A stretch of 64,000 nt of DNA from an uncultured bacterium (GTDB lineage: Bacteria; Verrucomicrobiota; Kiritimatiellia; RFP12; UBA1067), in contig CADCGZ010000001.1 in assembly GCA_902801025.1 (NCBI GenBank), positions 11,091-75,090 on the forward strand, written 5' to 3'. Position 1 is the stretch's first letter; the number at the start of each line of letters is the position of its first letter. Shown here piece by piece: positions 8,651 to 58,570 of the stretch. A program made the translations under genes and the position numbers. Under the pieces are notes generated by a model. That model saw nothing but the letters and a program-made list of their open reading frames with translations. It had not been told where the DNA came from and did not search any database.

Positions 8651-11600
8651 ATGAAAAAGAAACTGACGACCCTCGCACTGACAGCAGCCCTCGGATTGTT
8701 CGCGGGGCCATTCGCCAAGGCCGCCGACGGCGACATCTACGACATCGTGCCGTGCACCGAGTACGGCGTGGACCGAGGCGCGTGGACGATTCCCGACGAT
8801 CCGTTTGGCTCGGGCGTCGACGTCTACTTCAAGATCCGCCTCGTCGCGCGCGAGTTCAACGGCGCTGCCCCGGTCAGCCTCTGGCGCCTCGACTACGACG
8901 GACTTATCTCCCCGAGCGTCGTCTCGAACCTCTACCCGATGCAGATCGGCATCTACGTCTCTGGCAGGCAGACGTTTGCAAAGCTTGACACGGTGCTGGC
9001 CGAGGGCAACTACACGACGGCGCTCATCTTCAAGTACACTACGAAGCCGGGCGACTTCGCGATGCCAATACGCCTTGCGACCGCCGCCGGCCCCGCGGGC
9101 GATGCGATTGGCAACGGCGAGTATGTGTTCAACCCGGCCACCTCCTACTGGAAGATGAGCCGCTACGACTCCAGCAACAACAGCATCTCCGACTGCAACT
9201 GGACCTTTACGTCCGACAACACGAGGATCGGCCGCGCGATAACCGACATCGGCCGCTCGCCAGTCACCGACTACTCGCTCCAGGATTGCGGGATATACGT
9301 CAAGACTGTCGACTTCTCCAACGACTGGGAAGACGCGGCCTATTGGCGCTCGATCCACGAGAACTCGACGATTACCGGCGGCGGCATAAGCCCCCGTCTC
9401 GCGATCACGGCGCCGTCCGACGAGAAGCGCTCGTTCTACGTGTGGTCCTCCGACGAGAGCAAGATCAAGGTCAAGGCCTCCGGGTCCGTCACCGTCTCGC
9501 CGGTCACGATGCAGATCGACTCCTCTGGCACCATGGACACTTTCCAGGTGGCCAAGGTGTCGTTCGAAGGCGGCTCGGGCGATCCCGTTCCGTTCCTCGT
9601 CGAGGCCCAGCCCAACTCGTCGGGCGACACGGCCAACCTCATCCTCAGCGCATACGACCACTTCAACTACTCGGCCTCGTCCACCGACCAGCTCATCGAC
9701 TACATCACGGTTCCCGTGAAGTGCATCGAGGCGCTTCCCGCGAGCGTCATCGTAGAAAGCGCCGACAAGTCGATAACGGCGGACAACGACTACATGACGG
9801 CCAAGACTTCGCTCGCCGTCTATCTCTCGCAGGCGGTTGAAACCAACGTCACCATCACGATCAAGACGACGTTCGAGGACGACGCCACCAAGACCGATTG
9901 GGGCAACTACGTCCGCTTCTCGACTTCCGCCAACACGGTGCAGACCCTTCCGGTCGACAACGAGGTCACGATTACCATTCCCGCCGGCTCGACGGAAAAG
10001 AGGATCGTCTACATCTACGCGCTGCGCGGCGACTCGCATACGACAGGTGACGGGCACCAGGTGAAGTTTACCCCGTACGTCGACCCTGCGGTAATGGCGG
10101 CGGCGGGCATTCAGGATCTCACGGCGGCGGGCCTCTGGATCAGCGCCGCGAAGCCGGTCATCACGACGCCCGACTCGACGAGCACCTATGAGGTCACGGC
10201 AGGCGAGGAACTCGAGATCAACGTCGCCGTGGAGGATACCTACGCCGACATGACCGACACGGCGACCGGCTACCAGGTCAAGATCAAGACCGGCTCGACG
10301 GCAAGCTGGACGACTCTCCCCGAGCGGTTCAAGGTGACCGGCGAGGAAGGCGAGCTTATCGGCCTCACGTCCGGCAACCCGCCGACGATCGAATACCCGT
10401 CCGCCGGCACACAGACGTCGCAGATCCAGGTAATTGCGCCGATCAGCGGCAAGAAGAGCGAAATCGTCACCTTCACCGTGAACGTTGCCGCTGCGAAGAC
10501 GACGAGCGCCATGTCGCTCGACCCCGATCCCGACAACTACGTCGAAGGCGACATCGTGCACTTCCGCATCGCGCTCAGCTCGCAAAACGACACGGGCGCC
10601 CCGATCTACGCGTTCCTCGTCTGCAACGAAGACGTGGATCTCTCGATGTTCGGCGGCACGGCCTCCAAGGCGATCCTGAGGGACAGGACGGCCGCGGCGC
10701 CAGGTTCCGTCGGCAGGCAGATCGGCGAAGTCGGTTCTTACGCCGACAGCTCCTTCACGGTGCTTGATGGCCTTTCCTCGGACGACGGCGGGCTCAACTA
10801 CACGTTCTCCGTGGTCCTCTGCAGGACGAAGGAATACGATCCCGCCCAGCGGCTCGAGGGCTACGCCACGACCGAGATGCTCAACATCACGGTCTACAAC
10901 AAGGAGCCCGAGTTCGTAACCGTGTCCCTCAACGGCTTTGACGCGGACGGCGACGGCTACACGTTCTCCAACCAGTACCCGAAGGGCCAGGACCAGACGA
11001 TCCAGCCGACCTTCGACGACGTCTCCTACGACCTGAAGCACGGCTTCTCCTACAAGTGGACGGCCTCCCGCGACGGCAAGGCCGAGGTGAACGGCACGGT
11101 GATGCACGACACGACCGGAACGGTCACGACGCCAACGACGACCTGGAACGGGAACCAGTGCACGACCGTGGTGCCCGACGGCGAAAACATCAACGAGTGC
11201 CCGATCGTCTACAACTTCCCGCGCGCCGGGACCTGGACCGTCAAGATCCAGATGAAGGACAAGGACATGACGAAGATCTCGCCCGTCTCCTATTCCATCT
11301 CCTTCGTCATACTCTCCAATCCCGCGATCACGATAACGGCCGATTCGTCCTACGACGAAAACCTGAACGCCGCGAAGTTCGACGTCGGGCTCGGCTACTT
11401 CGATTCCGACGACGACATCGTCGTCAAGCTGACCGTTACGCCGCCTGCGGGCACGAACCCGGGATCGCTCGTCCTCGACAACGAGTTCAAGACGGTGCCT
11501 GCGGGCTACCCCGCGCTCGCCGACAACGAGTACTACGTGGTCTTTGACTCCGCGCAGGCGATATCGATCGGCATTGACTCGATGGACGGCACGCGCCTGT

Positions 11601-55467: not shown

Positions 55468-55521
55468 CCAGCGCCTCATCCAAAAGTAAACGCGCGTTCT
55501 GAAAGTAAGCGCACAAGAATT

Positions 55522-55745
55522 AACTCCGATCGTTTGGGCTCTCGCTACCGCTCCGCTGCTTCGCGAGGCCTCAACGACAATCCAGTGAGTGGAATTGTCT
55601 TTTGGGGCCGCCTTCGGCAGAGGAGGTCTGGAGGAAACCTCCTCCAGCTTAAAGACAATCAGCATCATTCAGCGAGAAACGAATGATGGGCGCGAAGCAA
55701 ATGTAATTCTGCGGAGCGGTAGCGAGAGCCCTGCTGATCGGAGTT
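55522..55745. repeat. long-stem hairpin element, copy A (224 bp)
   Basis: Left arm AACTCCGATCGTTTGGGCTCTCGCTACCGCTCCGCTGCTTCGCG (55522-55565). Right arm CGCGAAGCA..GCGGAGCGGTAGCGAGAGCCCTGCTGATCGGAGTT (55691-55745), including a perfect 21-bp pairing. The interior holds TTTTGGGG plus two hairpins (55600-55647). Confidence 0.9.
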
Positions 55746-55775
55746 TGTGAATCGATGAGAAACGCACTACAAGTA

Positions 55776-55784
55776 TGGTATAAT
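55776..55784 (+). promoter_or_regulatory. extended -10 promoter TGGTATAAT, 9 nt upstream of the parE-like ATG
   Basis: TATGGTATAATATCTGCTCTATG has the same geometry as the tkt promoter TATGGTATAATATACCCCCTATG. Confidence 0.5.
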
Positions 55785-55793
55785 ATCTGCTCT

Positions 55794-57607
55794 ATGGCTA
55801 CAGACTACGGTGATAAAAGCATAAAGACTCTCGATCCGGTGACGCACATCCGCCTGCGTCCCGGCATGTACGTCGGCGAACCCGGCACGGGCGCGATGTA
55901 CCATGACTGCATCTACATCCTGATGAAGGAAGTGATCGACAACGCGATCGACGCGGGCGAAGTGTCCGTGCGCGACTACGGGCGCGGCATTCCGCTTGGC
56001 AAGGTCGTCGACTGCGTCTCGCAGATGAATACCGGCGGCAAGTACGACAACGAGAACTACCAGTTCTCCGCCGGTATGAACGGCGTCGGCACGAAGGCCG
56101 TGAACGCGCTTTCCGAGTTCTTCGAGGTGCGCTCGTTCCGCGACGGCGAGTTCTCCGAGGCGTATTTCGAGGAAGGGCGACTAAAGTCCAAGAAGCGCGG
56201 CAAGCTCAAGACGAACGAGCATTCGGGAACGTACATCCGCTACAAGCCCGACCTCAAGGTTCTGAAGAAGTTCAAGGTGCGCGAGGAACACGTCCTCAGG
56301 CGCATGAAGATGTACTGCTACGTGAACGCGGGGCTGACGATAGTCCTGAACGGCCAGGAGATCTGCTCCGACCGCGGGCTTGCCGACCTCATCGCTGACG
56401 AGGCGCAGTTCGAGAAGCTCTACCAGCCGTTCCACGTGAAGACGAAGTCGCTCGAGATAATCTTCACGCACACCAACCGCTTCGGCGAGGAGTACCACAC
56501 GTTCGTGAACGGCCAGTACACGACCGACGGCGGCACGCACCTCACGGCGTTCAAGGAGGCGCTCACCAAGGCGCTCAACGACTACGACCCGAAGAAGAAG
56601 TTTGACGGCGACGACATCCGCGACGGTCTTCTCGGCGCGGTGTCGGTGAGGATCATGAACCCCGTCTTCGAGGGGCAGACGAAGATCAAGTTCGTGATGA
56701 ACGACATCAAGTCCGAGCTCGTCCAGCAGATGAAGAAGGAGATCGAGGCGGCGCTCCACCGCTCGCCCTCCGAAGCCGACAAGCTCATCTCCAAGGTCGA
56801 GGAGACGGGGAAGATACGCTCGCAGCTCAACACGATAAAGAAGCAGGCGCGCGAGAGGTCAAGCAGGCGCGCGAGAGGTCGCAGGCCGTCTCGGTGCGCG
56901 TTCCGCAGCTCAAGGACTGCAAGAACCACCTGAAGCTCGACAAGGTCGACAAGAAGACCGGGAAGGCCGAGGGCGAGGACACGATGATCTTCCTCACTGA
57001 GGGCCAGTCGGCGGGCGGCACGCTCGGCGGCGCGCGCGACGCGATGAACCAGGCGGTCTTCTTCCTGCGCGGCAAGTGCCTCAACACGTGCGGGCTCAAC
57101 AAGGACGTTCTCTACAAGAACGAGGAGTTTTTCAACCTCATCAAGACGCTCGACATCGAGGACACGCTCGAGCACCTTCGCTACGGGAAGATCATCTTCG
57201 CGACGGATGCCGATGTCGACGGACTCCACATCAGGATGCTCCTCACGACGTTCTTCATGCGCTTCTACCGCCAGCTCATCCTCGACGGGCGCGTCTTCAT
57301 CCTCGAAACGCCCCTCTTCCGCGTCAGGAACAAGAAGGAGCACTACTTCTGCTACACAGACGAGGAGCGCGAGGACGCGATAAAGAAGTGCGGGCGCGGC
57401 TGCGAGATCACGCGCTTCAAGGGACTTGGCGAGATCGACAAGGAGGACTTCAGGGGCTTCATCGGCGAGGAGATGCGCCTTACGCCCGTGACTTGCTCCG
57501 ACGACACAGACGTCGAGAAGACGATCAAGTTCTACATGGGCGCCAACACGCCCGAGCGCAAGGACTACATCATGGAGTCTCTCGTCTGCGACGCCGCCGA
57601 GTTCTGA
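55794..57607 (+). pseudogene. parE: type IIA topoisomerase subunit B (ParE/GyrB family, Bacteroidetes/PVC-type topo IV B-like) disrupted by a 20-bp tandem duplication
   Basis: The GHKL region (EVIDNAID, DYGRGIP, NTGGKYD, GMNGVGTKAVNALS) and transducer lie in frame 3 up to ~56880. Toprim (FLTEGQSAGG, ATDADVDGLHI) and the tail (RFKGLGEI) lie in frame 2 from 56894. Deleting one copy of 56841-56860 restores a single ~597-aa ORF that reads ..KKQARERSQAVSVRVPQLKDCKNH... Confidence 0.8.
56841..56880 (+). repeat. perfect 20-bp tandem duplication AAGCAGGCGCGCGAGAGGTC x2
   Basis: 56841-56860 is identical to 56861-56880. Twenty nt is +2 in reading frame, which is exactly the observed frame change. Confidence 0.97.
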
Positions 57608-57649
57608 TGCGGCGTTCCAAATTTCACCGCTCCACACGGAGTGATTTTG

Positions 57650-57658
57650 TGGTATAAT
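57650..57658 (+). promoter_or_regulatory. extended -10 promoter TGGTATAAT upstream of the low-GC orphan ORF
   Basis: TTGTGGTATAATAAC, 77 nt upstream of ATG 57735. Confidence 0.4.
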
Positions 57659-57734
57659 AACAATGTTCCATGCAGGGGATGTGGAATCGCACCCTATGCC
57701 CATAGCACGCCGTTGAAAAGAAAGGGGCTTTGAA

Positions 57735-57992
57735 ATGATGTACAAATTCATGGAATTGCCGGACAAGACGGAAATCACTCATTCCGACTTAAGAGATGAC
57801 GGAACCGTGAAGGTTTGCGTCGAACGTCCTATTGAGGGAGATTTTAAGACCGCGTATTGCACTATCCCCGGCTATGGGTGGTATGATGTCGAGGGATACT
57901 TGCCAGAAGAGCTTGCTGAGAATCGGAAAATCCTTGAATCCCTTTCGCATCTGATAGTCCGATTTGCTCGCAACGGAGGAGTGGCTTTTTGA
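57735..57992 (+). CDS. hypothetical small protein (85 aa) in a visibly AT-richer segment
   Basis: ATG preceded by AAAGGGG. The ORF has no long overlapping competitor. No family recognised. Confidence 0.5.
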   Translation: MMYKFMELPDKTEITHSDLRDDGTVKVCVERPIEGDFKTAYCTIPGYGWYDVEGYLPEELAENRKILESLSHLIVRFARNGGVAF

Positions 57993-58037
57993 TATAACGA
58001 TGCTGTTCCAATGACAACATTCTGTGGAGTGTGATCT

Positions 58038-58440
58038 TTGACATCGTTGGAGGTTCCCCAGTTTTTCGGGCATGAAAACGGCCACACCCCTGTAAACAAA
58101 GGGTGAAGTGGTGATTTTCATTTCGCGATAAGTGAAAACTCCTTTCCCGATTTTCTAAGCAACTCCGAGCGTTTGGGCTCCCGCTACCGCTCCGCAGCTT
58201 CGCGTCCCTCAACGACTGAATATGTGCAGGGTTAAGCGTTTGGGGATGCGACTGCGTCGCATAAATCGGCCGAGGGCCGCTATAAACACTATGAAAGGAG
58301 TCACTTGATCGTGGTTGAAAAGCGCGAAGCAGTGAAGCGGTAGCGGGAACCCTAACCATCGGAGTTTCTGAAATTCCGCGCGGGGTGTCGGAAAGGGGCG
58401 GCAGTACCTGCGAAAATTGGGGAACCTCCAATTGACATCG
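58038..58440. mobile_element. non-autonomous transposable element (MITE, 385 bp) with 19-bp terminal inverted repeats and a perfect 9-bp target-site duplication
   Basis: TSD TTGACATCG at 58038-58046 and 58432-58440. Left TIR TTGGAGGTTCCCCAGTTTT (58047-58065). The reverse complement of the right TIR (58413-58431) is TTGGAGGTTCCCCAATTTT, an 18/19 match. No transposase ORF lies inside. Confidence 0.75.
58161..58366. repeat. long-stem hairpin element, copy B (206 bp), nested inside the MITE
   Basis: Arms are ~90% identical to copy A (AACTCCGAGCGTTTGGGCTCCCGCTACCGCTCCGCAGCTTCGCG ... CGCGAAGCAGTGAAGCGGTAGCGGGAACCCTAACCATCGGAGTT). The interior holds TTTGGGG plus hairpins ATGCGACTGCGTCGCAT and CGGCCGAGGGCCG (58239-58279). 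Confidence 0.9.

Positions 58441-58481: not shown

Positions 58482-58570
<89 letters not shown>

Follow-up and report, generated by a model that had tools for sequence, protein, structure and literature searches.

Two long-stem hairpin elements, copy A and copy B, lie in direct orientation on either side of a broken parE-like gene and a small, low-G+C open reading frame (ORF) in the 64,000-nt window that we analyzed, which covers positions 11091 to 75090 of contig C1 in a 3.5-Mb, 195-contig, 59.7% G+C draft genome of an uncultured Kiritimatiellae bacterium. Both belong to a dispersed family of foldback repeats that is confined to one genus-level group of Kiritimatiellae from gut and rumen. Copy A is a PF13366 foldback element minus its 552-nt gene segment, and it sits in the remnant of another repeat at a place where the gene order differs from that of the nearest relatives. 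Copy B forms the core of a miniature transposon of 385 bp that inserted 42 bp upstream of a tRNA-Leu gene and has inverted ends similar to those of an IS4/IS701-like DDE insertion sequence (IS). The 2.4 kb between the two copies appear not to be a unit. The explanation that we favor, and consider probable as a whole, is that A and B are independent gene-less foldback copies, with B carried in a MITE (miniature inverted-repeat transposable element) and a PF13366 protein as the best candidate for the enzyme involved. Below, C labels denote contigs of the bacterium's own genome (G000), G003, G013, G183, and similar labels denote genomes of relatives, and the oriented features all lie on the + strand.

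Copy A, a gene-less repeat of the A type, occupies positions 55522 to 55745 (224 nt), and copy B, a gene-less repeat of the B type, occupies positions 58161 to 58366 (206 nt); these coordinates, given in the original prediction, are correct. Both elements fold far more stably than their shuffled sequences, as expected of the long-stem hairpins they had been taken for, with predicted free energies of -134.2 kcal/mol for copy A (z -11.4) and -104.5 kcal/mol for copy B (z -8.2), and the predicted fold of each is a stem of approximately 45 bp closed by a branched interior. The inverted-repeat arms of the hairpins measured 35 to 59 nt. The left arm of copy A (55522 to 55565) is made up of the terminus AACTCCGA, a variable segment, TCGTTTGG, and the invariant core GGCTCTCGCTACCGCTCCGC, and the right arm (55702 to 55745) is made up of the core GCGGAGCGGTAGCGAGAGCC, the variable segment CTGCTGA, and the terminus TCGGAGTT; positions 9 to 14 of the right arm are unpaired with the left arm. 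The reported similarity of about 90% between the two elements applies to their arms but not to their interiors. The left arms (55522 to 55565 versus 58161 to 58204) were identical at 41 of 44 positions (93%), and the right ends (55715 to 55751 versus 58336 to 58372) showed 81% identity, whereas BLAST produced no alignment between the interiors of copy A (approximately 145 nt) and copy B (approximately 118 nt). What the two copies have in common is therefore only the arms of approximately 44 nt.

The first 20 nt of the arm occurred three times in the window, compared with 0.01 occurrences expected by chance, and a genome-wide search with BLAST and a core-motif scan found approximately 17 family copies on 16 contigs of the draft genome, so that the arms are clearly not unique to the two loci. 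A twin of copy A in this genome (C39:36645-36868) was 89% identical over the full length, and the twins of copy B (C93:4528-4733 and C125:6432-6637) were approximately 90% identical. Other forms present were variants with a 36-nt insert, a 60-nt mini form, and forms of 806 to 845 nt. Of 25 genomes from the genus, 13 contained the family, and the 16 from other families of the order all lacked it. Among species-representative genomes, the exact 21-nt core pattern matched at least 108 stretches, almost all in metagenome-assembled genomes (MAGs) of gut or rumen Kiritimatiellae. A few short repeat-bearing contigs (L039, L064, L073, and L114) were binned as Nanosyncoccus, Clostridia, Bacillota, and Gemmiger, which is probably binning contamination. 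We collected 91 distinct paired elements with sizes of 161, 206 or 207, 224, 234, 260, and 265 to 314 nt, as well as a few longer ones of 746 to 2,082 nt, and the interiors of the different size classes were unrelated to each other. A reading of the repeats as integron attC sites with gene cassettes was rejected: the copies are dispersed singly over 16 contigs and not in tandem cassette arrays, and the termini with their flanks, read by eye, match GTTRRRY in few copies and never match RYYYAAC, although no integrase search was made.

The family also made it possible to judge whether the arms are conserved as sequence or as paired structure. Across 81 unique copies, both arms had near-invariant 8-nt termini (AACTCCGA ... 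TCGGAGTT) and a near-invariant 20-nt core, GGCTCYCGCTACCGCTCCGC, and positions 9 to 14 differed regularly between the two arms (e.g., GCGTTAGG versus TCAGCAGG) and were mismatched in most copies. A T-to-C change in the left arm of copy B, compensated by an A-to-G change in its right arm, had been put forward as a sign of selection on pairing. The change is present, but it is exceptional: at this pair (pair 21), 40 of the 81 copies had T-A, 37 had a one-sided change (C.A or T.G), and just 2 had C-G. Among 23 A-type copies, RNAalifold found a two-sided change in 2 of 58 predicted pairs (3 of 1,327 cells), and the mean identity of the arms (94.5%) exceeded that of the interiors (79.9%). With no covariation in either the arms or the A-type stems, the argument for selection on pairing fails, and the compensatory change in copy B is due to chance. 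Either the arm sequence is read by something, or the copies are young or homogenized; nothing points to selection on pairing.

Full-length members of the family, 728 to 1,084 bp long and found in at least six genomes, carry a PF13366 gene (GxxExxY, PD-(D/E)XK nuclease-like) between the same arms. In the 845-nt member at C66:30957-31801, the two halves of the copy A interior are split by 552 nt with a 130-amino-acid ORF that matched PF13366 with 113 bits. By BLAST, positions 27 to 99 of copy A correspond to C66:31049-31121 and positions 97 to 224 correspond to C66:31674-31801. Because copy A aligns to both sides of this gene segment, it is a deletion derivative of a PF13366 foldback element, and the point at which full-length relatives have the segment lies at 55618 to 55621 (...TTCGGCAG|AGGAGGTC...). 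The 260-nt variants at C32, C151, C192, and C181 retain a 36-nt remnant at copy A position 99. Intact PF13366 genes were found between the same arms at L006/L053 (746 nt), L106 (777 nt), L071, L231, and G014:C208 (728 nt), and at G019:C1 the gene lies between two complete hairpins. Six aligned PF13366 proteins (C66, L006, L106, L071, L050, and L090) were 73 to 90% identical and had an invariant D...ExK motif. Copy B matched the gene-bearing elements only in the arms; at C93, L048, L002, and related loci, a B-type hairpin replaces approximately 185 nt of the PF13366 gene within an A-type element. More generally, 42 of the 61 genus genomes contained one to six PF13366 genes each, and of the 30 best-scoring loci, a rough scan showed 14 to be flanked by strong inverted repeats with other, family-specific sequences. 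The gene enclosed by the arms of the present family matched PF13366 only and showed no match to GIY-YIG, a PDB sequence search gave no match, and its AlphaFold model (predicted local distance difference test score of 47) was too poor to use. Our literature search returned nothing on Kiritimatiellae repeats and no PF13366 foldback elements, with GxxExxY mentioned just in passing, in three papers; the link of foldback repeats to this nuclease family is apparently undescribed.

Copy B had been placed inside another MITE, and this was confirmed. The "type 2" outer element, detected as inverted repeat I6, spans 385 bp (58047 to 58431), has 19-nt inverted ends that are 95% complementary (58047 to 58065 and 58413 to 58431), and is flanked by a 9-bp target site duplication (TSD), TTGACATCG, at 58038 to 58046 and 58432 to 58440. 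The gene for tRNA-Leu (anticodon TAA; 58482 to 58570) begins 42 nt downstream of the duplication. The same composite, of 385 to 386 bp, was found at L079, L098, L054, and L113 with 83 to 93% identity, and its duplications elsewhere are different ones (10 bp at L079 and 9 bp at L054). A second, "type 1" composite of 427 bp has the ends CTGGAGTTTACCCATTTTT, an A-type hairpin inside, and duplications of 7 to 9 bp, with examples in the own genome on C39 and C181. The elements are small and multicopy, lack a transposase ORF, and vary in presence between genomes. The type 1 terminal inverted repeat (TIR) is also the end of insertion sequences of 1,539 to 1,596 bp (L122 to L128) that encode a DDE_Tnp_1 transposase of approximately 450 amino acids, which scored 45.9 bits against Pfam DDE_Tnp_1 (cutoff, 23). 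In length, TIR, and transposase, this outer element is similar to IS4/IS701, but its scores of 26 to 40 bits against the NCBIfam IS701/IS4 equivalogs are far below the cutoffs of 115 to 170 (39.8 versus 170 for the best), and the draft genome holds no intact copy of it, only a transposase fragment. The outer TIR of copy B, TTGGAGGTTCCCCAGTTTT, is similar to the ends of elements from the same transposase group that are more distantly related (L130 to L136), and an 815-nt fragment, L145, carries the type 2 TIR itself.

All short elements with these outer TIRs in our set contain a hairpin. The arms are approximately 93% identical between type 1 and type 2 composites, whose outer parts are, by eye, only approximately 60% alike, which implies that the module moved between carriers or is far more constrained than they are. 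Arms were also found in two full-length insertion sequences, L114 (4072 to 5797; 1,726 bp) and L121, where they lie directly around the transposase gene and inside the IS ends. The transposases of these two are 85% identical to each other, and L122 to L128, with the same IS ends but without arms, encode transposases that are 66 to 73% identical where full length. An ISL3 element (L064:305-1866) and an IS66 element with a DUF6788 gene (L044:245-2326) are each enclosed by the two arms of a hairpin. Both were rejected as parents of the family; they share 51 to 78 nt with short hairpins beyond the arms and thus look like insertions into hairpin loops, which may be preferred or tolerated insertion sites. 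The idea that the arm termini AACTCCGA are copies of the outer TIR tip AAACTCCAG was also rejected, since the termini are unchanged where the tip differs (type 2, ...AACCTCCAA).

To follow gain and loss, the joined flanks of five hairpin sites of the own genome were searched in four relatives. The C51 site (G000:C51:44817-45012) corresponded to a spacer of approximately 35 nt in G013, and in G183 and G003 it was occupied by a different, unrelated pair of palindromic repeats. The C80 site (G000:C80:13794-14053) had a different small palindrome in G003 and G183, and G003 lacked the C39 composite, in whose place G183 had another repeat. This site variation shows the family hairpins to be lineage-specific arrivals at spots that attract such repeats. 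Other palindromic families were seen at the same intergenic spots (L195 to L199), namely, arrays of the word GGAGTCAGTAGTCAGG, CACAAAG hairpins, and TTTTAGCCACA hairpins, or there was nothing at all. The alternative in the original prediction that A and B are independent insertions of a mobile hairpin agrees with these data: the arms are multicopy, copy B came in a composite with its own TSD, and other sites are empty or otherwise occupied in relatives.

Copy A is preceded by the left-end remnant of a "type 5" outer element (55468 to 55521; ...CAAAAGTAAACGCGCG...GAAAGTAAGCGCACAAGAATT), which abuts the stop codon of a radical-SAM gene and reaches copy A. This flank of 50 nt also lies in front of hairpins in C32, C93, L048, L061, L002, and L106, and at L106 it terminates one side of an element that has inverted ends and the 8-bp duplication GGTGAAAT. 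No matching type 5 right end follows copy A. At L061 (JAEDKA010000102.1), an orthologous radical-SAM gene (74% identical) is followed by a type 5 end and a family hairpin of a different subtype, and the closer relatives G183 and G003 have neither a type 5 end nor a hairpin after their radical-SAM gene. Two loci, C56:11281-11340 and L050:3331-3590, are chimeras with a type 1 end on one side of the hairpin and a type 5 end on the other, in both combinations, and this suggests recombination at hairpins.

The gene between the two copies (55796 to 57607) is a broken ParE/GyrB-like gene with matches to Pfam DNA_gyraseB, Toprim, and DNA_gyraseB_C and, by promoter scan, its own extended -10 promoter at 55776 to 55784. 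The two lesions noticed earlier are real: the N-terminal ATPase region has lost 51 nt in frame near 55954, between CGAC repeats, a 20-nt tandem duplication at 56841 to 56880 shifts the frame, and neither lesion occurs in five aligned relatives. A parE-like gene is present in 59 of the 61 genomes of the genus and is conserved at 72 to 92% (loci L152 to L166), but interspecies homology ends approximately 25 nt upstream of its start codon and a few nucleotides past its stop codon, and synteny extends beyond it in only one pair of relatives. Since the parE flanks differ in nearly every species, gene order here has been reshuffled gene by gene. Compared with G183 and G003, homology stops at 55473, just past the radical-SAM stop codon, spans 55772 to 57611, and restarts at 58440, so that the gaps in homology are the hairpin-bearing spacers and these spacers sit at synteny breaks. 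Both flanks of the A spacer and of the B spacer are nonsyntenic in G183 and G003, and an empty-site comparison for A and B themselves is therefore not possible. The spacers are rearrangement junctions, and nothing ties A to B; together with the hairpin-joined chimeras, their position at synteny breaks indicates that the repeats may take part in rearrangement.

The favored explanation has two parts. The composites would be moved passively by an IS transposase acting on their outer ends, and the hairpin module would spread, or stay uniform, via a protein that reads the conserved arm sequence; by analogy with RAYT for REPINs and Ssn for NTS repeats, the best candidate for this protein would be a PF13366 nuclease acting in trans. 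Several points weigh against this explanation. None of the 91 copies had a TSD immediately outside the arms (AACTCCGA...TCGGAGTT), no event separating near-identical strains was observed, no gene-bearing form with the copy B interior was found, and the genomes are all fragmented MAGs, in which repeats break assemblies. The putative nuclease role of the PF13366 protein is deduced from its intact D...ExK motif, and the arms in L114 and L121 could be a feature of the IS4/IS701-like IS and not of a nuclease element. Taken further, this last point gives a different account, which we consider unlikely, in which the arms would be subterminal inverted repeats of one IS4/IS701-like lineage, the hairpins would be MITEs formed by internal deletion, and the PF13366 genes would be secondary passengers. 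The order of outer TIR, arm, transposase, arm, and outer TIR in L114 and L121, the presence of a hairpin in each short element with these outer TIRs, and the clean 8- to 10-bp duplications of the composites are all in line with such an origin. However, seven related IS copies (L122 to L128) share the outer TIR and have no arms, outer TIRs are lacking from many hairpins, copy A among them, and the arms bracket PF13366 genes outside such IS ends at G019:C1 and G014:C208. Additionally, the arms stayed approximately 93% alike while the outer ends of the composites diverged far more, and in the rough scan PF13366 genes of other subfamilies likewise lay between their own family-specific arms at 14 of 30 loci. 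We are similarly doubtful about a stronger version of the favored explanation, in which the arms would be recognition and cleavage sites of the PF13366 nuclease and arms plus gene would form an undescribed, nuclease-driven foldback mobile element. Such an element would spread without target duplication, seed gene-less hairpins, take genes into its loop, such as the IS4/IS701-like transposase in L114 and L121, hitchhike in MITEs, and make rearrangement junctions like that at copy A.

Two further explanations appear far less likely than these. One, raised in the original prediction, is that the hairpins delimit a recombination-prone or mobile cassette of the parE-like gene and the small ORF that is excised, inverted, or exchanged between the arms; the hairpin spacers do lie at the homology breaks against G183 and G003, and the C56 and L050 chimeras are joined at a hairpin. 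Yet the copies share just approximately 44 nt, copy B arrived within a MITE with its own duplication, and there is no second copy of the interval in the genome. The parE context varies by species without these arms, none of which was found within 1.5 kb of the 15 nearest parE loci, the parE gene of G183 is still linked to tRNA-Leu, 2.9 kb away, and the comparison of the locus in relatives revealed no A-B unit; we thus consider a cassette very improbable. The same low standing belongs to the possibility that the hairpins are structured noncoding RNA genes or cis-acting RNA elements, such as terminators or stabilizers, under selection for pairing. Their folds are very stable and they are intergenic, often just past a stop codon, but there is essentially no compensatory change in the arms or the interior stems, neither A nor B has a terminator-like tail, and an Rfam scan of the whole window matched only three tRNAs and no family at the hairpins. 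The variable presence of the sites, with other repeats at the same spots, and the existence of gene-bearing and IS-bearing versions also argue against an RNA function.

REP and REPIN sequences are short, dispersed, intergenic hairpin repeats with many gene-less copies and a cognate RAYT gene that encodes a Y1/HUH transposase, with which they form REPtrons. The family described here is similar to the REP/REPIN-RAYT system in its short, dispersed, intergenic hairpins and many gene-less copies, and it is similar to REPtrons in having a single small gene between inverted repeat copies, as at G019:C1. It differs in that the flanked gene is a PF13366 PD-(D/E)XK gene and not a Y1/HUH transposase gene and in that the arms are far longer, approximately 44 nt, with interiors of 110 to 230 nt; PF01797 (Y1_Tnp) had only four weak matches in the own genome (at most 28.7 bits, on C17, C24, C110, and C2), all on contigs without arms. 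NTS/SRM repeats are recognized by the GIY-YIG single-strand nuclease Ssn and shape genome dynamics (PMC11893778). As in that system, a small nuclease gene is associated with a multicopy repeat, but the gene is of the PD-(D/E)XK and not the GIY-YIG type, it is known here from sequence data, and the repeats form long foldbacks, which are also carried within MITEs. Bacterial MITEs include Correia/NEMIS, ERIC, Nezha, and MITEAba12, and nested insertions are common among them (PMC10969869; PMC6382973). The copy B composite is similar to these in its inverted ends, 9-bp duplication, several copies, lack of an ORF, and ends like those of a DDE IS. In contrast, the hairpin proper lacks terminal duplications, composites with different outer ends have its arms in common, and its full-length form carries a nuclease-like gene in place of a transposase.

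These results remove a false lead, in that no hairpin-bounded cassette carries the parE-like pseudogene and the small ORF as cargo. Within their selfish repeat family, copies A and B are ordinary members, and the wider interest lies in the PF13366 link and in the layering with MITEs. The locus is a well-resolved case of repeat layering in uncultured Kiritimatiellae, with a foldback module inside miniature transposons of DDE insertion sequences and copies at gene-order breaks, and it links the foldback module to PF13366, a very large nuclease family that is uncharacterized. Should the nuclease indeed act on the arms, PF13366 would gain a function and would become the third nuclease superfamily, after RAYT and Ssn, among systems made of a repeat plus a cognate enzyme.

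Some minor observations concern the genes around the two copies. The broken gene is the only parE-like gene of its genome, and the homologue in G003 has a 25-nt deletion of its own. In the closest relative, the radical-SAM gene is directly followed by a ParC/GyrA-like gene (L168; G183:C18), at the place taken up in the own genome by copy A and the broken parE-like gene. The segment from 57608 to 58046, which had been described as an AT-richer orphan ORF, is indeed low in G+C (46.9%), does not occur at this position in G183 or G003, and has no second copy in the own genome. Its 85-amino-acid ORF (57735 to 57992) is not an orphan but a member of a conserved family of approximately 89 amino acids with 33 homologous protein clusters. 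On other contigs (L234 to L238), members of this family always overlap a downstream DUF4160 (PF13711) gene, and the two form a module of the toxin-antitoxin style; here, the DUF4160 partner has decayed to a short remnant of its start just before the MITE.

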